Positions 3,365 to 43,401 are shown, counted from the stretch's first letter. The stretch: DNA of 64,000 bases from Candidatus Omnitrophota bacterium (GCA_028693815.1 JAQUUP010000003.1:1850-65849), one strand, 5' to 3'. Notes: a model not told the origin generated them from the letters alone. Numbers and translations: made by a program.

Positions 3365-6300
3365 TTACTTGTCAGAAAAAATAGATCCTACCTTTCTTTC
3401 TGATTTAATTGGCGATTTTAACGTCACTGTTCCATCAGGATGGACATAAACCTTTTCGCCTTTTTCAAAGCTAACTTCATAACTTGGATGAAACTTTGAT
3501 GTGCCGAAACTTTTTGACCAAACAAGAGAAGCATTGCTTTCCATCCGAGAGACTCTGTTTGATCCATATTTTCGAGAAGAAGAATCCTTGCCCAAATATC
3601 TTGAAGCAATTGAAACCGCTTCGCTTTGTGAAATGCGAGGATACACTTCTCCTGCTTCATCCCATGTTGCCTGAAGACAAGCTCCGTTAATTGGATTAAC
3701 TTGAACCAACACATGCGTTTTTAAAACATTCTTCTGATATGGATTAGATATATTACTTGCCTTTGTCCCGTCAATATCACCTTTTTCATTTTTTGTTAAT
3801 GAAGGCGTTATGTTTGAAACAAATCGGTCTAAAGCCAATAATGTATATTCTTTATTGTCATCCAGAGAAGTCACATTGAATTTTCTCATTTCTTGGGCTT
3901 TATCAAATAAACTCAAGAACTCAGCATCACCTTTCAAAGGATCAGGCAATGCTTGCGCCAAATAAATCAAACAAAGAACTGGAGCCGGTGCCTTCTGAAA
4001 GTTTCCATGGCTCATTAGAGACTTTGGAAAACCTTTTTCTCTTGATAAAGCAACGCTTTCTTGTGTCTCTGCTTTTCTTTCTTGATTCATTTCATCAATT
4101 TGTGCAAGCGCAACAACCAAGCTTGAATTAGGCCTTGCTTGAACAAGATGGCAAGAAGTATTTTCTAATTCTTTCTTATACGCTTCTTGATTAAGATTCT
4201 CTGGCGGTTCGTATACAGCTTTATACGTTCCTGTTGATACCAAAGGCAAATAATCTGCCTGAAAAGCCGTTGTTGTTTGATAGATATTAAAGCCAAGACC
4301 TGAAACTTCTGGATCATTAACCCATAAACCTTCAACGTTAAACTCTGGCATAGGAGCCGCAAAAGGATGAGGCTTAACATCTGTTACAATACCGCGAACT
4401 AAGCGCCAATTAAGATCGCCATTGACAGGAACCAATGCCGGAGAATATCCTCCCATCGGCGGTAAATAATCAATCCAATAAACAAAATTCTTAATGGCAT
4501 CTATTTGATTTGTTGTCTCATACCAATCGCTAAAATGATACGCAGGAGCGATTGGAGCAATCTCAGAATTAAGAGCCGTCACGATTTCACCTGAAATCAT
4601 ATCTTCACCCGGCGTTGTCCAGTGATATGTATTATAAATATCTGATTGCGTTGGACTACTTCCTAATGTGTATCGGATCGTTGCTCTCGTCGATGCAGCA
4701 CCTGTATAATAAGATTGCTGAGCCGTCTCTTGAGGAAACGTGTCTTGACCGTTAAGTACCCCAAGATGATTGACGTATGCAAAATCTAAAAATGCATCAT
4801 CAAAATACGCCACACCTCCATCGGCAAGCACATCTCCTGCATTTGCATAAACATAAAGCATATAACGCATTTTTACAATACTATCATTATCGGCCAAAGT
4901 ACCGCTTACCTGTAATTGCGTCCAACCATTAACACCAACAACGCTTTCATCTGAATCAGAAACAACCTCGCCGGCCGCATTTAATGCTTCAATCTTAAGC
5001 CCTGCTGTTGCAGAGGAATTAAAATCAAAATCTGTTTTTATTTGAACAGTTGCATAAAACGGATCATTTGGACCCGCATCAAATTCTTGGGTCAATGCAG
5101 CAAAATAATTTTCATTCCCATACATATTTAAATTATCAATTGTATTTTTCGCTGCCAATGCTCCTCCGCTAACATACTCTGCTTGAGCAATCCAAGAACT
5201 GGTTGCCTGATTAGGCTGCGGCCAATTAATATATGGCTCAACAATGGTCCAGTCGTGCAAACCATTCTCCATATCAGGATTCATCAAATTTCCAGGTGGT
5301 GTTGGAGGCTGAATAACATCAGTGCTCAATACAGCTTGATCAAACTGAACAATACCTCCATTAGCCAATGTATCGCCTTCTTTGGCAGAAACAAAGGCAA
5401 CATATCGAACCTTAACAGCATTCTGAGGCGCTGCTGCAGCAACATAGAGAAGTCGCCAAGAAGTCTCTCCTCCGATAATATCTTCATCTCCCACAGGATT
5501 ACCGTTTAGATCCTCCTCAATGACGAGCCCGCCATCATCCAGAAACTCAATAGCAAGTCCACCGGCTGCCATTGATATTGGATTAATGTTCGTCTGCGCT
5601 TCAATCGTTGCATAATACATTGTGCCTAACACCGGCTGCGGAATAACAAACTCTTGACTAACGGTTGCATAATAATCAAAATCGCTGCAATTCGTTACAT
5701 CAATTGTATTTCGAGCAGAATAAGTTCCTGCAAAAGGAGACTGTGTCTCAAGATCCCATGTTATAGAAGACGGCACTGGCTCAGAAACATCCCAAGCGTT
5801 AAGACCATTCTCGAATCCTGGATTTTGCAAATCTCCTCCAGGAGGTGGAATAGGATCTGTCGTTAAAACAGCTTCATCAAACATCGCAATCCCACCTTGA
5901 GCACTAAGATCTTCTCTTAATGCAAAGACTGAACAACTATATCTGATTTTTGCTGTTCCTTCTGGTGTATCAAAAGATAAGTAAAGCTGTGTCCAGTTTG
6001 TGTTGCCTCCAATCATGTCCTTGTATTCAATAATATTTCCATCATCATCCTCAATTTCCTCTCCAGCATCATTTAAGAACACAACTGAAATTCCGGCTTG
6101 CGCTGTTGATACTACGCTAATCTCAGTCATAGCTTGAAGAGTTACATAATATGTTGTGAGCTCTGGAGCATCAATATCCTGACTCACAGCCGCATAATAA
6201 TCTGGGAGAGGATCGCCATTTGGAGGCGGCACAGTTGAAAGATCTTCAACATTGATCGTATTTTTTGCAGAAAAAATTCCCATAAAAGGAGCAACCTGTT

Positions 6301-8689
6301 CCAAGTCCCATGTTGGAGCAGTGCCTTCTTCTAAATAAGCTTCTGTAATATCCCAGTGGTTAAATCCATTTTCGAATCCTGGGTTTTGTAAACTCTCAAC
6401 AACAGGAGGTGGAATATAGTCAGTGGTCAAAACAGCTTCATCGAATATCGCCGTACCACCTTGAGCGCTAAGATCTTCTCTTAATGCAAAAACTGAACAG
6501 CTATATCTAATTTTTACAGTATCCTCTGGCGTATTAAAGGATAAGTAAAGTTGCTCTTCGGGGGTGTTGCCTCCAATCATGTCCTTGTATTCAATAATAT
6601 TTCCATCATCATCCTCAATTTCCTCTCCAGCATCATTTAAGAACACAACAGAAACACCAGCCTGTGCCGTTGAAGCTGAATTAATATTAGTTTTTGCTTG
6701 AAGAGTTACATAATATGTTGTGAGCTCTGGAGCATCAATATCCTGACTCACAGCCGCATAATAATCTGGGAGAGGATCGCCATTTGGAGGTGGCTCAGTT
6801 GAAAGATCCTCGATATTAATTGTATTTTTTGCCGAAAGAGACTCTGCAAGAGGATTATTTTGTTCAAGACTCCATGTTGGAGCAGTGCCTTCTTCTAAAT
6901 AAGCTTCTGTAATATCCCAATGGTTAAATTCATTTTCGAATCCTGGATTTTGTAGATTCTCAACAACAGGAGGTGCAATATAATCAGTCGTCAAAACAGC
7001 TTCATCGAATATCGCAATCCCACCTTGAGCATTAAGGTCTTCTCTTAATGCAAAGACTGAACAACTATATCTGATTTTTGCAGTATTCTCTGGCGTATCA
7101 AAAGATAAGTAAAGTTGTTCTACAGGAGTGACGCCTCCAATCATGTCTTTATATTCAATAATATTTCCATCGTCATCTTCAATTTCCTCTCCAGCATCAT
7201 TTAAGAACACAACAGAAACACCAGCCTGTGCGGTTGAAGCTGGATTAATGTCAGTTGTCGCTTGAAGAGTTACATAATATGTTGTGAGCTCTGGAGCATC
7301 AATATCCTGACTCACAGCCGCATAATAATCTGGGAGAGGATCGCCTGGCTGAGGGGGTTCTGTAAGAAGATCCTCAATATTAATTGTATTTTTTGCCGAA
7401 AGAGACTCTGCAAGAGGATTATTTTGTTCAAGGCTCCATGTTGGTCCCGGAGGAGGAGTTAGATTAGGATCAAGTGCCGCTTCTGTAATATCCCAACCAT
7501 TAAGCCCATTTTCAAATCCTGGATTCTGAAGCTGACTTCCTCCTGGAGGTGCAATATAGTCAGTGGTCAAAACAGCTTCATCAAATAGCACAACTCCGTC
7601 ATGAGCAGCAAGATCGTCTCTGAGCGCAAAAACCATACAACTATATTTAATCTTTACAGTTCCCGCAGGCGCTGTGACAGCTAAATAAAGATTTTTCCAA
7701 TCAGTTGTCCCTCCAATCGTATCAGATGCCTCAGAAAGAACAGTTCCTACAGAATTTAAAAATTGAATTAAAATTCCAGCTTGCGCTGTCGATAATACAC
7801 TGATATCTGTCTTTGCTTGAAGTGTTGCATAATACGTCTCTCCGGCGCTTGCACCATAAAGTTCTTGGCTAACAGTAGCATAATAATCTGGAAGAGGATC
7901 GCCTGGCTTAAGTGGCTCTGTAACAAGATCTTCAATATTAATTGTATTTTTAGCAGAATAAACTCCCCAAGGACTCGGCGTCTGAAGACTCCACGTTGGC
8001 GCCGGAGGAGGAGTTAGATTAGGATCAAGTGCCGGCTCTGTAATAGTCCAGCCGTTAAATGCATTTTCAAACCCTGGATTCTGAAGCTGACTTCCTCCTG
8101 GAGGTTCAATATAACTCGTGGTCAAAACAGCTTCATCAAAATACGCAAGACCATTCTGAGCTATGACATCGTCCTTAGATGCATAAACTGAGCAATTATA
8201 TCTAATCTTTGCGGTTCCCGGAGGAGCCGTAACAGCTAAATAAAGATTTTTCCAATCAGTTGTCCCGCCAATCATATCAGATGAATCGAAAATAACGAAT
8301 CCTGCAGAATTTAAAAATTGAATTGCAACTCCAGCCTGCGCTGTCGATAATGGACTAATATTTGTCTTCGCTTGAAGTGTTGCATAATAAGTCGTCCCAA
8401 CGCTTGCATTAAATTCCTGTTTAAGTGTTGTATAGTATTCCGGTGCCGATGATTGAAGAGCATTGACATTAATTGTATTTATAGCAGAATAACTCCCCCA
8501 AGGACTCGGTGCAAGATTCCATGTTGGCAAAGTACCTTGTACTACGGCGGGCTCTATTCTAGTCCAACCATTTAAGCCATTTTCAAACCCTGGAGTTGCA
8601 AGCATGTTGACAGCCAAAGCAGGCGCAGCAAAAATAAACACAACTGCCATGGTAAGAGTGATTAATCTCGTTAATTTCTGAAACAACAT
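3365..8689 (-). CDS. Giant secreted repeat protein (1774 aa) with about 8 tandem CBM4/9-like ~185-aa modules and a ~570-aa unique C-terminal region
   Basis: N-terminal signal peptide (MLFQKLTRLITLTMAVVFIFAAPALA). The protein has repeated NPGFENGLNGW...YYATLQAKT...STAQAG...FDEAVLTTDYI blocks typical of CBM_4_9 carbohydrate-binding modules. The repeat DNA is nearly identical between modules. Confidence 0.85.
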   Translation of the reverse strand: MLFQKLTRLITLTMAVVFIFAAPALAVNMLATPGFENGLNGWTRIEPAVVQGTLPTWNLAPSPWGSYSAINTINVNALQSSAPEYYTTLKQEFNASVGTTYYATLQAKTNISPLSTAQAGVAIQFLNSAGFVIFDSSDMIGGTTDWKNLYLAVTAPPGTAKIRYNCSVYASKDDVIAQNGLAYFDEAVLTTSYIEPPGGSQLQNPGFENAFNGWTITEPALDPNLTPPPAPTWSLQTPSPWGVYSAKNTINIEDLVTEPLKPGDPLPDYYATVSQELYGASAGETYYATLQAKTDISVLSTAQAGILIQFLNSVGTVLSEASDTIGGTTDWKNLYLAVTAPAGTVKIKYSCMVFALRDDLAAHDGVVLFDEAVLTTDYIAPPGGSQLQNPGFENGLNGWDITEAALDPNLTPPPGPTWSLEQNNPLAESLSAKNTINIEDLLTEPPQPGDPLPDYYAAVSQDIDAPELTTYYVTLQATTDINPASTAQAGVSVVFLNDAGEEIEDDDGNIIEYKDMIGGVTPVEQLYLSFDTPENTAKIRYSCSVFALREDLNAQGGIAIFDEAVLTTDYIAPPVVENLQNPGFENEFNHWDITEAYLEEGTAPTWSLEQNNPLAESLSAKNTINIEDLSTEPPPNGDPLPDYYAAVSQDIDAPELTTYYVTLQAKTNINSASTAQAGVSVVFLNDAGEEIEDDDGNIIEYKDMIGGNTPEEQLYLSFNTPEDTVKIRYSCSVFALREDLSAQGGTAIFDEAVLTTDYIPPPVVESLQNPGFENGFNHWDITEAYLEEGTAPTWDLEQVAPFMGIFSAKNTINVEDLSTVPPPNGDPLPDYYAAVSQDIDAPELTTYYVTLQAMTEISVVSTAQAGISVVFLNDAGEEIEDDDGNIIEYKDMIGGNTNWTQLYLSFDTPEGTAKIRYSCSVFALREDLSAQGGIAMFDEAVLTTDPIPPPGGDLQNPGFENGLNAWDVSEPVPSSITWDLETQSPFAGTYSARNTIDVTNCSDFDYYATVSQEFVIPQPVLGTMYYATIEAQTNINPISMAAGGLAIEFLDDGGLVIEEDLNGNPVGDEDIIGGETSWRLLYVAAAAPQNAVKVRYVAFVSAKEGDTLANGGIVQFDQAVLSTDVIQPPTPPGNLMNPDMENGLHDWTIVEPYINWPQPNQATSSWIAQAEYVSGGALAAKNTIDNLNMYGNENYFAALTQEFDAGPNDPFYATVQIKTDFDFNSSATAGLKIEALNAAGEVVSDSDESVVGVNGWTQLQVSGTLADNDSIVKMRYMLYVYANAGDVLADGGVAYFDDAFLDFAYVNHLGVLNGQDTFPQETAQQSYYTGAASTRATIRYTLGSSPTQSDIYNTYHWTTPGEDMISGEIVTALNSEIAPIAPAYHFSDWYETTNQIDAIKNFVYWIDYLPPMGGYSPALVPVNGDLNWRLVRGIVTDVKPHPFAAPMPEFNVEGLWVNDPEVSGLGFNIYQTTTAFQADYLPLVSTGTYKAVYEPPENLNQEAYKKELENTSCHLVQARPNSSLVVALAQIDEMNQERKAETQESVALSREKGFPKSLMSHGNFQKAPAPVLCLIYLAQALPDPLKGDAEFLSLFDKAQEMRKFNVTSLDDNKEYTLLALDRFVSNITPSLTKNEKGDIDGTKASNISNPYQKNVLKTHVLVQVNPINGACLQATWDEAGEVYPRISQSEAVSIASRYLGKDSSSRKYGSNRVSRMESNASLVWSKSFGTSKFHPSYEVSFEKGEKVYVHPDGTVTLKSPIKSERKVGSIFSDK
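5400..8400. repeat. Intragenic tandem DNA repeats of period about 555-570 bp inside the giant surface-protein gene
   Basis: Near-identical segments recur at about 6011, 6581 and 7141, and again at 7262-7462 versus 7817-8017. Antisense spurious ORFs in the provided track have near-identical translations. Confidence 0.75.
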
Positions 8690-18339: not shown

Positions 18340-18400
18340 CACTTCCGCCTTTAAATGAGCACGTGTCTTATGGAAAGCTAATGAACATAAGTCACTGTGC
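18340..18400. repeat. Conserved ~60-nt 5'-leader element (copy upstream of PLDc_N)
   Basis: AAATGAGC...CTTATGGA...GAACATAAG...GCGAATTTACTCCG aligns with the copies at 19975-20037 and 22381-22435. Confidence 0.6.
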
Positions 18401-18457
18401 GAATTTACTCCGTGCCTGAAAGGCATCGAAGTTCTTAACATTTGGCTTTGAACGTTA

Positions 18458-18560
18458 TCCCAAGAAGGTCCAGGTTTGCGGAATAAAATAACGTAAATCT
18501 GCTAACCCGACGCCATCCTCGCGCGTTCAAAAAATGCGCGGAGACTTCCTTAGGGTTTCC
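18458..18560. repeat. ~105-bp dispersed intergenic element, copy B
   Basis: About 85% identical to 22586-22690. It contains the conserved hairpin GGTTTGCG-GAATAAAATAA-CGTAAAYC and a second stem before AAAAAATGC. Confidence 0.65.
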
Positions 18561-18658
18561 ATATTTAATTTCTTAAGCAATGCTGAACAATGCCTTAATA
18601 TACCTTATTTTTCAAAGAATCGTCAAGCACAAAGAACTACCACAACTATCTAAGATCT

Positions 18659-19195
18659 TTATCGAAATTCAGAAATTTCAACCACATCTTTTCTTATCTT
18701 CTCACGCAAACCATCGCCTTGCGGATATCCCACGCTAAACATAATATCAATTTGATCTTTTCTTGAAAGCCCCAACACTTTTTTTACACCTCTTTGATTA
18801 AACCATCCAAGCCAACAAGTTCCTAGCCCCTCTTCGGCGGCCTGTAAACAAAAATGTTCACCTGCGATCCCTAAATCAATCAAGCTATATTGCGTCCCAC
18901 GAAAATGACCCGCTAATTGCGCTGCATATTTTGACCGCTCGGTTACAACAGCAACTAAAACCGGCGCATTTTTTGCAAAGCTATTCATCGTGTGCACACC
19001 AGAAAAAGCCGCATCAGCTAACTTGTTCTTAAGTTCCGTCTCGGCAACGACAATAAATCGCCAGGGCTGAGAATTGCATGCCGATGGGGCTAAGCGCGCC
19101 GCCTCAACACACCTCTCTAAAACTTCTTTAGGAACAGGAGCATCAGAATATTTTCTACAACTTTGGCGTTTTTTAGAAAGATTTAAAAAATTCAT
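18659..19195 (-). CDS. Nitroreductase family protein
   Basis: [18 protein letters not shown] and the ~178-aa length fit the family. Confidence 0.8.
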
Positions 19196-19974
19196 TTTCT
19201 TTGCTCGAGATAAGTTTTAATAATTTCCTTATGATCAAACGCATACATGCCTTCTAAAAGTTTATCGTAAGGCACGATCTTTAAATTTTGAGCATCATCA
19301 CCTGATTGCGGCGTTCCAACTCCTTTGGCAACAAAAACGGTATCAATTGTATGAAACCGCGGATCACGGCTCGGGTCAGAATAAGTATGAAATTGTCTCA
19401 AATCTTCAAGATCTAAATTTGTTTCTTCTTTGGCTTCTCTTACTACTGCGGCTTCTAGACTTTCGCCAGGCTCAACAAACCCTCCGGGCAAAGCCCAGCC
19501 AAAAGGCGGATTGCTTCGTTCAATAATCACAAGGCCTTCAGGCCTTTCGATAATCGCGTCTACCGTGCAATACGGCTCGCCAGCTAGATGTTTAAGCAAA
19601 TGATGAATATAACCATAAACTTCTTTTTCAAAGACTTCTAGAAGCTCTTTATTGTCGACGGCAATGATGATTCTTTCTAAAAGCGCTTTACCATTCTTAA
19701 GCAATCGATAAATTTCCTGAGTCACAATGCGCGTTAGACCAACGGCTGGAAAGTTTTTAGGTAGGATAATATCTAAAACAACGGTTTTGTGTTTTTCGTT
19801 ATTACTTTTTTCTAAAATATCGCGGCAAATCTTTCGAATAGGCGCTTCTCTTTCTTGTAAAGAAAGCGAACTATCAATTTTATTAACATCCAAAAAGCTT
19901 CCGACAAAATCAGCATCAATATTCTTTGCTTTCTCTAATACAACGTCAATATCGGTTTGTTGAATACGTTCCAT
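19192..19974 (-). CDS. NUDIX hydrolase with an N-terminal accessory domain
   Basis: Nudix box [24 protein letters not shown] in the C-terminal half. It overlaps the downstream gene by 4 bp. Confidence 0.8.
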
Positions 19975-20037
19975 AAATGAGCTCCAAGCTTATAAAATGT
20001 CAACGAACATAAGTTCGCTCAGCGAATTTATCCCAAT
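19975..20037. repeat. Conserved ~60-nt 5'-leader element (copy upstream of the NUDIX gene)
   Basis: CAT-AAATGAGCTCCAAGCTTAT...CGAACATAAGTTCGCTCAGCGAATTTATCCC, immediately 5' of the start codon. Confidence 0.6.
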
Positions 20038-21471
20038 TTATTTTATCATCACTCTTGCAATATCAAGAGCTTGTTTTTTTGTTTTAATTTCGCCCAATGC
20101 ATATTTTTCTTCAATACGCACTAAAATCTTCGCAAAAACTGGAGATGGCTTAAGCTTCAAAGTTTTAATGAGATCATCGCCCGTTAAAATACGCACTTTC
20201 TTTTCTTTTTTTTCTTCTTCAAAATATTTAGAAATAAGCCCATAAATAATTTCTTCATGATGCTCTTGATCCTTTTCTGTTGTCAGAGGTCCTCTTGTTG
20301 AGCGTTGATCCGAAAGAGATAAAAGCAAAACGCCTATCGCCTCTTCTTTTACATCACGAAAAAATCGAAAGATTGCACGCGGTGTTGGATTCTTAAAATT
20401 TGATAAATATCCTGGCCTTAAATGATGGCCCACCATTATCTCAAGCGCTGTTCTTTCGTTCACAGACATTTTTAACATTTTTGCAATATTACGCACAATA
20501 TAACGGCCAACATGCTCGTGGCCATGATACGTTATCTTGTTGCGCTCTTTTTTATAGGTTTCTGGTTTTCCAGCATCATGCAAAAGGGCTGCGAGCTTGA
20601 TCAAAGCAAAACGCTTTCTACCGCAAGCCAACTCTTCATTTAGATACTCCGAAACTTTCTCATTATCAGAAAACTCTAAAAAACATTTCTCAACCTGACG
20701 GACAGATTCAAAGCTATGATCCATTAAAGACAAGTGATGATATCCTCCCCCAGAAATATATCGCATTGAAGCAATCTGAGGAATAATCCTCTCCAAAAGA
20801 CCAATCGAATGCATTTGCTTTAGATTTTTATAAGCATTTTTAGATGATAAAATCTTAAAAAATTCTTCACGTACGCGCTCACGAGCAACCTGACTTATCA
20901 ACAAAAGGTCTTTTTTGATCTGTGCTTTTGTTTTTGCTTCAATCTTAAAGTCCAAAACAGCCTGTAGACTAAAGCCGCGCAACATACGCAACGGATCTTC
21001 CGCAAAAACTTTTTTAGACACCATCTTAATTGTTCTAGATCTAATGTCTTTAAGACCTTTTTTGTAGTCTTTGGCCTGTTTTAAAATATTTGTATCGTTG
21101 TAAATATTTTTAATATCAACTGAAATCGTATTAATAGTAAAATCCCGATGAGAAAGATCCCCTTTTAAATCTTTAGCTCGAAAGTCTGCAAAATCAAATG
21201 TTAACAACTTTCCCTTCTGCTTACGGGCAACGCGTGCACAATTATGCTCTTCATCTAAAAGAACAAAAGCACCCTTAATTTCTTTAGCAAAAATCTTAGC
21301 AATCTTAATAGCATTTTTGCTCGTTGCAAAATCAAAATCAACAACCTCGCGACAGAGATAGAGATCACGCAAAGCTCCTCCAACTAAAAAAGCATCAACG
21401 TGATTTTTTTTCGTAATAGCATTTAATATTTTAATAAATGGGGAAAGATTAGGTAGTGTTTGCTCAGGCAT
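20038..21471 (-). CDS. cca: CCA tRNA nucleotidyltransferase with an HD domain
   Basis: The N-terminal FLVGGALRDLYL...DFDFAT nucleotidyltransferase motif is followed by an HD phosphohydrolase region (HDAGK). Confidence 0.85.
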   Translation of the reverse strand: MPEQTLPNLSPFIKILNAITKKNHVDAFLVGGALRDLYLCREVVDFDFATSKNAIKIAKIFAKEIKGAFVLLDEEHNCARVARKQKGKLLTFDFADFRAKDLKGDLSHRDFTINTISVDIKNIYNDTNILKQAKDYKKGLKDIRSRTIKMVSKKVFAEDPLRMLRGFSLQAVLDFKIEAKTKAQIKKDLLLISQVARERVREEFFKILSSKNAYKNLKQMHSIGLLERIIPQIASMRYISGGGYHHLSLMDHSFESVRQVEKCFLEFSDNEKVSEYLNEELACGRKRFALIKLAALLHDAGKPETYKKERNKITYHGHEHVGRYIVRNIAKMLKMSVNERTALEIMVGHHLRPGYLSNFKNPTPRAIFRFFRDVKEEAIGVLLLSLSDQRSTRGPLTTEKDQEHHEEIIYGLISKYFEEEKKEKKVRILTGDDLIKTLKLKPSPVFAKILVRIEEKYALGEIKTKKQALDIARVMIK

Positions 21472-21504
21472 GATATGCGATCAGTATTAATGTTCTTAAA
21501 GCTT

Positions 21505-21915
21505 TCAGAACTTTGGAATTTCTGTGCTTTTCAAAACTTCTTCTTCAACAAAAATCGGTATTTGCGCGCGAACAGCCAAAGCCACGCCATCCGAAGGTCG
21601 CGAATCAATTTCTTTAGTTACACCGCTAGCGGTCTCAACAACTAATTTGGCATGAAACGTATGATCAACAATCTTATCAATAACAAGTTTTTTAGGTGTT
21701 GCCTCAAGTCCCTCTAGAATAGAAATAATCAAATCATGGGTCATCGGTCGCGGTAATTCAAGATTGGATAATTTCATTTTGATGCTAGATGCTTCCACGA
21801 GACCAATCATAATAGGAAATTGACGAGTTCCTCCTCGCTCTTTCAGAACAATAACCTGATCTTGCCTTTTCTCATCAATAATGATTTTATTCAAATCAAC
21901 TTCAATCAAACTCAT
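21505..21915 (-). CDS. Bifunctional nuclease (BFN/DUF151) family protein
   Basis: 136 aa with the characteristic QFPIMIGLVEASSI...RPMTHDLI block. Confidence 0.7.
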   Translation of the reverse strand: MSLIEVDLNKIIIDEKRQDQVIVLKERGGTRQFPIMIGLVEASSIKMKLSNLELPRPMTHDLIISILEGLEATPKKLVIDKIVDHTFHAKLVVETASGVTKEIDSRPSDGVALAVRAQIPIFVEEEVLKSTEIPKF

Positions 21916-21918
21916 CAG

Positions 21919-22380
21919 CTACTTTTTTCCTTTTTGGAGCAAATGACTCAGCTCATTAACAAATTGATTCACATCGCGAAATTGCCGATAAACAGAAGCA
22001 AACCGAACATAAGCAACATCATCTAAAAGCGCAAGTTTTTCCATAATCAGCTCGCCAATATCTTTAGAATTAACTTCACGATCATTCTTCTTTTGAACTA
22101 AACGTTCAATTTCTGACGTTACTTCTTCCATTTTATCCATACTAATAGGTCGCTTTTCGCAAGCTTTAACAATGCCCGATAAAATTTTTGCACGGTTAAA
22201 GGCCTGCCGACGACTATCCGACTTAACAACCATCAAAGGAACTTGCTCAACATATTCATAAGTTGTGAAACGATCTTCGCACTTTAGACATTCTCTTCGA
22301 CGACGAATTGAGGTCCCATCGTTATTTAAACGAGAATCAACAACTTTTGTTTCTTTATATTGGCATTTCGGACAACGCAT
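21919..22380 (-). CDS. nrdR: Transcriptional repressor NrdR
   Basis: MRCPKCQYKETKVVDSR...ECLKCEDRFTTYE zinc ribbon followed by an ATP-cone domain. Confidence 0.9.
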   Translation of the reverse strand: MRCPKCQYKETKVVDSRLNNDGTSIRRRRECLKCEDRFTTYEYVEQVPLMVVKSDSRRQAFNRAKILSGIVKACEKRPISMDKMEEVTSEIERLVQKKNDREVNSKDIGELIMEKLALLDDVAYVRFASVYRQFRDVNQFVNELSHLLQKGKK

Positions 22381-22435
22381 AAATGAGCTCCGAGCTTATG
22401 GAGCACAGCGAACATAAGCTCGCTGAGCGAATTTA
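22381..22435. repeat. Conserved ~60-nt 5'-leader element (copy abutting the nrdR start)
   Basis: In mRNA sense it reads ...TTCGCTCAGCGAG CTTATG ttcgctgtgctc CATAAG CTCGGAGCTCATTT-ATG. Stem CGAGCTTATG/CATAAGCTCG shows covariation with the other copies. Confidence 0.65.
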
Positions 22436-22585
22436 TCCCGTACCCGAAGGGTATCGGGATATTGAACATTTAATTTTGAACCCAATCCCGTACCCGAAGG
22501 GTATCGGGATGTTGAACATTTAATTTTGAACCTGATCCCGTACCCGAAGGGTATCGGGATATTGAACATTTAATTTTAAGCCTGA
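22436..22585. repeat. Three tandem 50-bp repeats, each carrying an imperfect hairpin
   Basis: The unit TCCCGTACCCGAAGGGTATCGGGATATTGAACATTTAATTTTGAACCNNA recurs at 22436, 22486 and 22536, with a CCCG-TACC-gaag-GGTA-CGGG stem-loop. Confidence 0.85.
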
Positions 22586-22690
22586 TCCCAAGGAGGCCTA
22601 GGTTTGCGGAATAAAATAACGTAAACCTGCTGACCGATGCCATCCTCACGCATTCGAAAAAATGCTCGGGGACTTCCTTGGAGCTGCCAA
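22586..22690. repeat. ~105-bp dispersed intergenic element, copy A
   Basis: Aligns with 18458-18560. The minus-strand track ORFs 22470..22745 and 22576..22764 overlap it, but the other copy does not preserve those frames. Confidence 0.65.
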
Positions 22691-22802
22691 ATTTCATTCG
22701 GCTTGTCCCTTTTATCAAACACACAAAACGTGTCAGGATTCTCAACTTTTAGATTCTTGAACATTATCCCAAAAACATTTTAAAAAAACAACGCGGGATT
22801 TT

Positions 22803-24056
22803 TTACTTATACAGCGGAAACTTTGCTGTTAATTTTTCTACATCCAACTTAATTTTCTTAAGCACACTCTCATCGCCCTTATGCGTAACCGCATCATCAA
22901 TAAATGTTGCAATTTGCTTCATCTGATCTTCTTTCATGCCGCGCGTTGTAACGGCAGGAGTCCCGATACGAATACCACTTGTAATTGTTGGTTTCTCAGA
23001 ATCATATGGAATCAAATTCTTATTAACCGTAATGCACACCTTATCGAGCGCATCAGCAGCATCACGTCCTGTTGTTTTCTTCGTACGAAGATCAACCATA
23101 AACAAATGATTATCTGTGCCACCAGCGACAATGCGATACCCTTTTTCTGCTAAAACACTCGCCATCGTAGCTGCATTAACCACAACCTGTTTTTGATATT
23201 CCTTAAAACCATCCTCCAAAGCTTCTTTAAAACAAACAGCCTTTGCAGCAATCACATGCATTAAAGGCCCGCCCTGAACGCCAGGGAAAATGGCAGAATC
23301 AATTTTCTTGGCGAATTCTTTGCGACATAAAATCATTCCCCCTCGAGGGCCGCGCAACGTTTTGTGCGTCGTAGTCGTAACAAATTCAGCATAAGGCACA
23401 GGATTCGGATGAAGCCCCGCAGCTACAAGTCCTGCAATATGCGCCATATCCACCATTAAATAAGCACCAACCTCATCACAAATTTCACGAAATTTCTTGA
23501 AATCAATAGTGCGCGAATAAGCTGAAGCACCGGCAATAATCATTTTAGGCTTTGTCTCTTTCGCCAATTTTAAAATCTCATCATAATTAATCATTTCTGT
23601 TTTTTTATCAACACCATAACTAACAATATGATACATGCGTCCTGAAAAATTAATCTTATGTCCATGTGTTAAATGTCCGCCACAAGCTAAGTCAAGCGCC
23701 ATTAATGTATCATTGTTTTTAAGCGCAGCTAAACAAACTGCCATATTGGCTTGCGATCCAGAATGTGGCTGCACGTTAGCATGCTCTGCTCCAAAAATCT
23801 CTTTAGCACGATCTATGGCAAGCTGTTCGACAACATCAACATTTTCGCATCCATGATACCAACGAGCCTTTGGATATCCTTCAGCATATTTGTTAGTCAT
23901 AACAGACCCTTGCGCTTCTAAAACAGCCTTTGAAACAAAATTTTCAGAAGCAATCAGCTCAATATTATTATTTTGACGCTTAATTTCTTTTTGGATCGCA
24001 TCAAAAACTTTATTATCTTTTTCTTTTAAATCATCCATAACACTTCTCCTATCCAC
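22803..24056 (-). CDS. glyA: Serine hydroxymethyltransferase
   Basis: 417 aa with conserved SHMT blocks ([28 protein letters not shown]). Confidence 0.95.
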
Positions 24057-39006: not shown

Positions 39007-39126
39007 ATGGTCGTAAAAAAGAAAGCGCCAGCTAAGAAAAAAGTGGCAAAGAAGAAAGTAGCAAAGAAGAAAGTAGCAAAGAAAAAGGTTGCAAAAAAGA
39101 AAGTAACTAAAGCAAAAAAGAAATAA
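39007..39126 (+). CDS. 39-aa lysine/alanine-rich histone-H1-like small protein
   Basis: MVVKKKAPAKKKVAKKKVAKKKVAKKKVAKKKVTKAKKK. A strong RBS AGGAGG lies 7 nt upstream and an intrinsic terminator follows. The gene is absent from the ORF track because it is under 60 aa. Confidence 0.6.
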   Translation: MVVKKKAPAKKKVAKKKVAKKKVAKKKVAKKKVTKAKKK

Positions 39127-42521: not shown

Positions 42522-42599
42522 TTAACTCCTCTTAAAAATAAATTAAACAAATACAACGAATTTACCCCAGGCTTAACTCTCAGAAATAAAAAGATCTCC

Positions 42600-43274: not shown

Positions 43275-43401
43275 AACACTCCCCTTAAATGAGCAGTTAA
43301 GTTACAAAGCTTAAAAAGCGACGCAACTTAGAGCTGCGAATTTACTCCGCACGTGAAACGTGTCAGAGTTTCATTAAATAGATATTTTGCAAAAACTAAA
43401 T

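Follow-up and report, generated by a model that had tools for sequence, protein, structure and literature searches.

In a stretch of 64,000 nucleotides from a Candidatus Omnitrophota bacterium (GCA_028693815.1 JAQUUP010000003.1:1850-65849; the whole stretch is called the window below), four unrelated genes, nrdR, a NUDIX hydrolase gene, a PLDc_N gene and mlaD, are preceded by a near-identical sequence of about 60 nt, which a sequence-only reading took for a hairpin-containing leader abutting the start codons. The question raised by this locus is what kind of element is repeated in this way and at which level it acts. The analysis showed a structure-constrained, repeated, intercistronic module that is gained, duplicated and lost, belonging to an Omnitrophota-wide family that is apparently undescribed. 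We hold, with about even confidence, that it is an ancient REP/ERIC-like family of co-transcribed intercistronic hairpin modules, probably with one common factor and perhaps with a generic double-stranded RNA (dsRNA) role.

A covariance model for the element was built mainly from other genomes and then run on the window. Exactly four full elements were matched, all on the minus strand and with E values from 1.5e-14 to 3.2e-11, the next match being at E 0.04, which bears out the repeat in the four leaders. The identity of the four downstream genes was likewise borne out by Pfam (NrdR, NUDIX, PLDc_N and MlaD). The upstream neighbours were assigned by Pfam as SHMT (glyA), a CCA-adding enzyme and a nitroreductase, and the open reading frame (ORF) upstream of mlaD was taken by eye to be the ABC ATPase MlaF. 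The SHMT shows 100% identity to a protein from a metagenome-assembled genome of a 'Candidatus Omnitrophica bacterium', in keeping with an Omnitrophota origin of the window. The motif GGRRTAAATTCGC (at most one mismatch) occurs seven times in the window against 0.4 expected, and four of these occurrences are the full elements. Since the element is found in only 4 of the ~39 window gaps of at least 45 nt, it is not a generic intergenic structure. The full unit is made of two adjacent hairpins, P1 and then P2, which are placed in the window as follows:

22380-22439, minus strand: P2 module upstream of nrdR (covariance model 68.9 bits, E 1.5e-14), reading GGGAUAAAUUCGC, a long hairpin and GCUCAUUUA
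22435-22460, minus strand: P1 hairpin of the nrdR copy, AUCCCGAUACCC-UUC-GGGUACGGGAU (fold z -5.9 for P1 plus P2)
19974-20034, minus strand: P2 module before the NUDIX gene (55.3 bits, E 3.2e-11)
18352-18411, minus strand: P2 module in the PLDc_N leader (66.2 bits, E 6.8e-14)
18407-18431, minus strand: P1 hairpin of the PLDc_N copy, CUUCGAUGCCU-UUC-AGGCACGGAGU (fold z -4.5)
43286-43348, minus strand: P2 module between mlaF and mlaD (58.7 bits, E 4.6e-12)
43344-43369, minus strand: P1 hairpin of the mlaD copy, ACUCUGACACG-UUU-CACGUGCGGAGU (fold z -4.8)
42539-42568, minus strand: remnant copy GGGGUAAAUUC-14 nt-AUUUA (18.3 bits, E 0.04, ends only)

The abutment of the leader on the start codons holds for the nrdR and NUDIX copies, in which the final A of AUUUA is the A of the AUG (22380-22378 and 19974-19972, respectively). 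It does not hold for the PLDc_N copy, which stops at 18352, 12 nt ahead of the ATG at 18339-18337, nor for the mlaD copy, which stops at 43286, 11 nt ahead of the ATG at 43274-43272; both genes have a Shine-Dalgarno sequence (SD) of their own in the spacer, GGGGAG in the case of mlaD. The GGAG proposed as an SD within the 3' arm is present in the nrdR and NUDIX copies but is peculiar to these two. It is not conserved elsewhere, and its position covaries with its 5' partner (AU 63, GC 41, CG 8, UA 4). The NUDIX copy occupies the whole 63-nt gap between the stop codon of the CCA-adding enzyme and the NUDIX AUG; it is without the 5' strand of P1, its stem is partly degraded, and the stability of this copy alone as RNA is not significant (z -0.67). 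One A.A mismatch was found in the PLDc_N stem. In the nrdR copy the 3' strand of P1, GGGAU, is the beginning of the P2 module, and the P1 hairpins of the window differ from one another compensatorily (UACCC/GGGUA, UGCCU/AGGCA and CACGU/ACGUG). The remnant lies between the mlaD stop codon and the next gene with only its two ends left, and looks like a copy whose hairpin core was lost.

The stem CTTATG/CATAAG described for the leaders does exist, but the whole 60 nt proved to be one stem-loop running from UAAAU to AUUUA. P2 measures ~55-70 nt (55-72 nt) and is closed by UAAAU/AUUUA. From its 5' end, UAAAU is followed by a 2x2 loop UC, GCNC, a 5' bulge of 1-3 nt, ~9 bp (..ACUUAYG), a second UC-type loop, a short stem and a U..C loop, and the strand then returns through GNGC and UC to AUUUA. 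The two internal loops are constant (5'-UC-3'/5'-UC-3', counted 160 times in 120 folds), and the apical loops are U..C triloops and tetraloops. P1 is a variable upstream hairpin closed by AYCCC/GGGRU, its 3' strand being the GGRR(U) that precedes P2. Of 127 such strands, 82 have an exact complement no more than 120 nt away (9-17 in controls); P1 is paired in 102 of 118 minimum-free-energy folds, and its closing pair covaries across genomes.

The stems were absent from the exact search pattern used to collect copies. In the exact-pattern copies 96.6-97% of the stem cells are paired, and 220-242 cells are changed on both sides against 52-58 in shuffles, the observed value being reached by none of 500 shuffles. 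The compensatory changes read from the window are true ones, in a conserved structured element. In copies found by the model outside the exact pattern, covariation was observed at the ends (UUAAU/AUUAA, UGAAU/AUUCA, UCAAU/AUUGA and UAAGU/ACUUA) and at the inner pairs (GGCC/GGCC and AGCC/GGCU). Double changes occur in all 18 modelled pairs once the copies are not pre-selected by the pattern, in an alignment fitted to the covariance model, which favours structure. The UC/UC loops are the constant part of the element; the seemingly invariant ends covary. No enrichment of UUCG or GNRA tetraloops, sought as an RNA signature, was found in the element loops, and no small ORF, read by eye on either strand of the element, is conserved.

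The exact-pattern scan, made on one genome per species, matched at least 120 loci. Four of these were chance matches in other phyla and without the stem, and the element stands at no fewer than 116 loci from 85 Omnitrophota species genomes/assemblies. The non-chance loci are labelled Omnitrophota, or come from metagenome-assembled genomes labelled 'Planctomycetales/Planctomycetia' or 'uncultured bacterium'. The density is ~1 copy per 16-40 kb. The search of related genomes and the covariance model proposed by the sequence-only reading thus showed an element that recurs across Omnitrophota with stem covariation, and its failure to match a known class was repeated by Rfam, which assigned no family. 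Rfam 15 at gathering score gave no match in the window, and a permissive search of both strands of 22300-22850 gave only chance-level miRNA or SL2 matches (E 0.14-8.6). No description of the element was found in literature searched by phylum, motif type and literal sequence, nor in one Omnitrophota genomics paper in which Rfam had been run, and a scan of viral contigs with the exact pattern gave no matches.

If this holds, a new and strongly covarying non-coding element is common to a whole uncultivated phylum, and its tens of copies per genome could occupy up to ~0.5% of the DNA. Repeat behaviour (arrays, doublets, gain and loss, duplication) would here be joined with phylum-wide constancy and per-copy compensatory evolution, which are usually seen apart. 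Omnitrophota genomes are small, 0.86-3.2 Mb (PMC10066038). In practice it could serve to mark Omnitrophota contigs by sequence. Short-read assembly is probably interrupted by the element, which would account for some assembly breaks. The only other assembly with this exact NrdR, L001 (Logan contig SRR22315505_296556), stops within the repeat array described below, 73 nt upstream of nrdR.

The position of the element relative to genes was then analyzed in the pattern copies. A same-sense ORF starts within 60 nt in 76 of 127 copies, against 20 in the reverse sense, and the start-codon offsets cluster at -1 (21 copies), at 0 (8 copies) and at +9 to +17. Flush copies elsewhere are without an SD-like motif in 21 of 27 cases, and spaced copies have an SD in the unpaired spacer, outside the structure, in 33 of 41. 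The 5' base of P1 lies 0-9 nt past the upstream stop codon in 23 of 59 cases, so the unit is often the entire spacer and the upstream stop and the downstream SD/AUG then flank the P1/P2 junction; in 11 of 20 flush copies, 1-9 nt separate the P1 base from that stop. Sense copies were found within the operons rpsS-rplV, rplM-rpsI, rpmI-rplT, trmD-rplS, pheS-pheT and trpB-trpA, which are co-transcribed almost everywhere, and its position inside these conserved operons implies that the element is co-transcribed too. Further junctions of this kind, counted by eye, are fabG-acpP, ribH-nusB and hisS-aspS. The products of trmD-rplS, fabG-acpP and ribH-nusB are needed in very different amounts in other bacteria.

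Between co-directional genes 44 copies are sense and 15 antisense, that is, about a quarter are antisense and the sense bias is 3:1. The AUUUA end lies just as tightly against gene borders of other kinds. Opposite-strand ORFs have their stop codon, TAA or TGA, within TAAAUGAGC in 15 cases, these antisense copies following directly after the stop, which lies within TAAATGAGC; six tRNA genes end exactly at the AUUUA end, and one tRNA begins 2 nt past a sense copy.

These positions raise the possibility of a translation device, in which coaxial hairpins would set stop and AUG side by side so that ribosomes re-initiate or 'shunt', or in which a cut at the base of P2 would give near-leaderless mRNAs; the element would then have a host function and not be a selfish repeat. 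The division between flush copies without an SD and spaced copies with one, the closeness of the P1 base to the upstream stop and the conservation of positions over deep orthologs agree with such a device. So do the flush genes, which include essential ones in coupled operons (rplV, trpA, pheT and nusB), and the strand GGGA-UAAAU, which can pair with both unit ends (5' UCCC and 3' AUUUA). However, in the antisense quarter the AUUUA end joins a stop codon or the 3' end of a tRNA instead of a start, the same junctions work in close relatives with a spacer of 5-18 nt and no element, and some copies, as those of nrdR and PLDc_N, are in long 5' untranslated regions (UTRs) far from any upstream ORF. 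We consider a translation device unlikely. The frequent lack of an SD before an essential gene in near-invariant ribosomal-protein/aminoacyl-tRNA-synthetase operons raises in any case a question of translation or mRNA processing.

An operon-punctuation system, to which we give a similarly low probability, would go one step further. The two-hairpin RNA would be read via its UC/UC loops by a phylum-specific factor, and would be cut or bypassed at its base, separating cistrons or re-initiating them exactly at stop/start codons. If true, it would yield SD-less, near-leaderless starts within essential operons such as rpsS-rplV, and would be the counterpart in bacteria of tRNA punctuation in organelles or ribosome shunting in viruses.

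The A-rich UAAAU, the stem with a GC base and the U-rich AUUUA could also be those of intrinsic, possibly bidirectional, terminators. Parts of the element are flagged as terminator-like by a simple scan, and the 15 antisense copies behind stop codons and those at the six tRNA 3' ends could still terminate there. Most copies, however, are sense and inside operons that need read-through (rpsS-rplV, rplM-rpsI, rpmI-rplT and pheS-pheT). The tail is only AUUUA, and its changes are compensated on the 5' side, which is needless for a U-tract. Moreover, internal loops that are constant across a phylum are not a terminator trait; we hold termination to be a very improbable explanation. A Nus-factor boxA/nut-like site was considered as well, GCUCAUUUA being in our view similar to boxA (GCUCUUUAA-like, single-stranded and beside a hairpin). 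It was rejected, since GC and AUUUA are base-paired and covarying (e.g., GGCC...GGCCUCAUUAA) and a quarter of the copies are antisense.

Two proposals of the sequence-only reading are not supported by these results. A riboswitch-like or thermosensing leader controlling the downstream SD was suggested by a covarying structure that adjoins the ribosome-binding site (RBS) and by the GGAG in the 3' arm of the nrdR and NUDIX copies. Tens of copies per genome stand by unrelated housekeeping genes and in both orientations, most copies either have their SD beyond the structure or lack one, and the element, which has no Rfam match, is dispensable at orthologous sites; its shape is that of a plain long hairpin without a multi-helix pocket, and little credence can be given to this reading. 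The other proposal was a mobile promoter/RBS cassette bringing expression signals to the downstream gene. TAAATT resembles a -10 hexamer, the mlaD copy has CTGACA 16 nt upstream, and two window copies carry GGAG at SD distance. At -11 of TAAATT, however, U, G or C can take the place of A while the other arm compensates, no common -35 element exists and GGAG is not conserved. Some copies are also internal to operons, and the PLDc_N leader has a separate promoter-like site upstream of its copy. The promoter part of the cassette in particular can be set aside; the cassette as a whole is scarcely credible.

Gain, duplication and loss were followed in relatives of the window and in the two longer leaders. 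In four relatives with an 87-90% identical SHMT, the glyA-nrdR spacer is 15 nt, against 422 nt in the window, and in relatives at this level of identity none of the three sites that the window has at 18-22 kb holds the element. Relative L202 has 5 nt at the CCA-NUDIX junction and an element-free 95 nt before PLDc_N, and the L202/L122 lineage has no copies in the 14 kb where the window has three. At the NUDIX junction L123, L124 and L203 carry the element and L122/L202, L125 and L204 do not; L125 does carry it at the nrdR junction. L203 also has it between purD and purE and between nitroreductase and psiE, two places where neither L202 nor L204 has a copy. The element-free relatives keep the same junctions with the short spacer mentioned above. 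The upstream parts of the nrdR and PLDc_N leaders of the window contain:

22435-22589, minus strand: three tandem 50-nt units, each made of the spacer UUCAAAAUUAAAUGUUCAAU and one P1 hairpin (TRF)
22590-22695, minus strand: module X of the nrdR leader, 78-89% identical to 18453-18567
18453-18567, minus strand: module X of the PLDc_N leader, paralog of 22590-22695 (alignment; BLAST 88.9% over 81 nt)
18597-18626, minus strand: sigma-70-like promoter candidate TTGACG-18-TATATT (10/12 in a consensus scan, a likeness that is no evidence of function)

The tandem repeat of the nrdR leader has a period of 50, 3.1 copies and 94% matches by TRF (repeat family D8). Module X, ~105 nt long and common to both leaders, contains a P2-like hairpin; in the nrdR leader an outer helix surrounds a small hairpin and this P2-like hairpin (UC-GGUC...GGCC-UC), the 3' end is GGGAU, and the inner hairpin gives a weak covariance-model match at 22593-22637. 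No sequence match to module X or to the 50-nt repeat was found among the other element loci compared. The composite X-P1-P2, ~215 nt, is present in these two unrelated leaders 4 kb apart with 78-89% identity, which spans (U/G)AAAU to AUUUA between unrelated flanks; it is a recent, dispersed duplication within this lineage. The promoter candidate stands upstream of the entire X-P1-P2 array and would give a 5' UTR of ~250 nt holding it; a similar promoter-like site is at the same place before PLDc_N in the element-free relative L202. Among the loci, adjacent copy pairs are tandem in 13 cases, head-to-head in 8 and tail-to-tail in 3. Isolated flank repeats were also seen, namely SD-like direct repeats around two doublets (L135 and L119) and a 21-nt duplication around the L063 copy.

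A MITE (miniature inverted-repeat transposable element) was rejected as an identity for the element: there is no target-site duplication, the copies are not near-identical within a genome and no related insertion sequence (IS) was seen. Variants such as UGAAU/AUUCA also exclude a fixed TA duplication. The copies are thus not random ends of a known IS or MITE, as the sequence-only reading had allowed for; their stems covary and they are not the end of a known IS. At L204 7073-7164 the glyA-nrdR spacer holds a different palindromic or tandem motif (gtaagctgtaaattttaagcttacagcttatagcttatagcttacagc) in place of the element. The 'empty' orthologous junctions L202 10093-10097 and L204 3723-3732 read TAAATTTCATG and tagAAATTCttag, respectively; these two of ~9 empty sites might be footprints of the basal helix after loss of the core, although they are suggestive only.

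In the REP/ERIC-like reading that we prefer, copies would arise by local and dispersed duplication and would be lost through deletion of the hairpin core. The constant loops and fixed spacing on an otherwise free helix would be the recognition points of one common trans-acting factor. As RNA, the element would most likely serve as a generic dsRNA hairpin that marks cistron borders, either through RNase III-type processing or as a barrier to decay, and would not be a ligand, temperature or gene-specific sensor. A role of this kind, known from T7 RNase III sites and from REP or ERIC elements, is the simplest one that works in both orientations, needs a regular helix and belongs at the borders of cistrons.

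Several results weigh against this reading. RNase III, or any other factor, enters it as pure inference. Nearly all stem pairs are Watson-Crick, and the G.U to A.C count is 37:29 read in the sense of the element (p 0.39) and 35:22 with each copy turned to follow the local coding strand, neither being significant; as G.U is not clearly favoured, the RNA-level reading is unproven, and the lean of these counts towards the transcript is weak. No target-site duplication above control was detected (longest flank match 5.94 vs 5.75 in the control), and no transposase is tied to the element, the Y1_Tnp genes found in 1.3 Mb of genome slices carrying inverted repeats of their own. The element is at the same junction in deep orthologs (rsmD in 4 species with 46-55% amino-acid identity, rplS at 50%, leuA in 3 species). 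Copy identity within a genome is 0.646 against 0.605 between species, unlike active MITEs or REPINs, so that most copies are old and individually maintained. The phylum-wide constancy of the sequence fits a host function better than a selfish repeat.

The near-absence of a G.U preference also bears on whether the element is read as DNA, as a hairpin or cruciform recognized by a recombinase, an HUH or other transposase, or a nucleoid protein, the RNA fold being incidental. Both orientations occur, the inverted doublets resemble REPINs and Y1_Tnp genes exist in the phylum, all of which would suit a DNA-level element. Additionally, the opposite strand of the element has tandem G.A mismatches and GNA/GNNA loops, which are stable motifs in DNA hairpins. 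This strand folds more stably (-23.3 vs -19.7 kcal/mol), and does so in 107 of 120 copies with RNA parameters and in 100 of 120 with DNA parameters. By contrast, the lack of a tied enzyme and of target-site duplication, the absence of recent bursts, and the 3:1 orientation bias with transcription and the SD/no-SD dichotomy at the 3' end, which point to expression-level constraints, make a DNA-level element rather improbable. GC skew tracks gene orientation in sense and antisense contexts, so replication and transcription are inseparable on this point.

The Y1 transposase search was performed by tblastn with Y1 sequences over the 1.3 Mb of slices, and IS200-like Y1_Tnp genes were present in three loci:

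L120, 7-396 and 2693-3655 (-): two copies, protein of 320 aa
L178, 1103-1540: one gene
L194, 1099-1536: one gene

The L120 Y1_Tnp gene is flanked by its own 15-bp inverted repeat, GGGTCAAACCTTGAC, and not by the hairpin element. In L206 a 268-nt insert (1815-2083) separates sua5 and rpiB, genes that overlap in the window. The insert, which runs directly into the ATG of rpiB, holds a frameshifted GIY-YIG (URI-domain) gene within ATCCCGTTAGACC...GGTCTAACGGGAT, whose closing pairs are those of P1. A link of the element to GIY-YIG genes was rejected, since the ATCCC...GGGAT stem surrounds the L206 pseudogene only and three other GIY-YIG genes (L019, L103 and L104) are without such flanks.

Among known systems the REP/BIME and REPIN-RAYT families of Enterobacteria and Pseudomonas are alike in being imperfect palindromes in intergenic transcribed DNA, with many copies in both orientations, as singlets, inverted doublets and mosaic clusters, with conserved stem mismatches and a short conserved tag beside the stem. 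The high copy number, intergenic position, both orientations, clusters and inverted pairs that characterize REP/BIME were all found for the element. REPs are 20-40 nt long with a GTAG or CGTC tag (PMC3733652), and they are tied to a RAYT gene that is itself flanked by REPs (PMC2817692, PMC3116915). By contrast, the element hairpin is 55-70 nt plus P1, its tag GGRR is itself base-paired, GTAG/CGTC is absent, no RAYT link was found in the 1.3 Mb of slices, and the consensus is that of a phylum and not of a species or genus.

The ERIC/IRU elements of Enterobacteriaceae and Vibrio are imperfect palindromes of ~127 bp found only in transcribed intergenic regions, operons included. They occur in either orientation, are conserved across genera of a single family-level group, vary in presence between orthologous sites, and are reported to affect mRNA stability in an orientation-dependent way. 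The element shares with them the longer transcribed intergenic palindrome, the free orientation and the variable presence at orthologous sites. No sequence similarity between the two is known, and the P1/P2 two-hairpin layout, the UC/UC loops and the flush start/stop fusion are not known as ERIC features.

Small repeated and co-transcribed hairpin inserts by genes are also known as Correia (CREE/NEMIS) in Neisseria and as BOX and RUP in Streptococcus pneumoniae, all confined to their genus and made of near-identical copies. RNase III cuts the Correia hairpins. Correia has 26-bp terminal inverted repeats and a TA duplication, unlike the element, which is without target-site duplication and whose copies differ as much inside one genome as they do from genome to genome. 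BOX has a modular build in which the middle modules vary in number, much as the element has 1-3 P1 units. The RNase III signals of the early region of phage T7, hairpins with a conserved internal loop between cistrons and just upstream of the next RBS, are a functional model for the processing or stability role suggested here. They are a handful of sites in one phage, with cleavage demonstrated, whereas the element has symmetric 2x2 UC/UC loops. Integron attC sites are alike in their imperfect palindromes, conserved foot bases, strand-marking unpaired bases and covarying stem between a gene end and the next start. This identity was rejected: the R''/R' core sites (RYYYAAC / GTTRRRY) are absent from the element alignment, and the flanks are syntenic housekeeping genes, not cassettes, with ~1 copy per 16-40 kb and not one after every gene.

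Upstream of leuA in L053, L063, L094 and L032, a conserved mini-ORF encoding MPWM(R/K)K-stop or MMPWMKK-stop adjoins the element. In L063 and L032 it flanks the element on both sides, and L063 also shows a direct duplication of 21 nt. The mini-ORF, which has no Leu codons, may encode a leader peptide for leuA. In the window itself (1-64000), 60 of the 65 long ORFs are on the minus strand and the GC skew is ~-0.2 throughout. Two further repeats were observed in it. At 5500-8600 there are 5-6 tandem units of ~564 nt (families D1-D7, 60-89% identity), presumably the gene of a repeat-domain protein on the minus strand, and the tandem repeat of 15 or 30 nt at 39015-39118 (AGCAAAGAAGAAAGT) is probably a low-complexity coding stretch.

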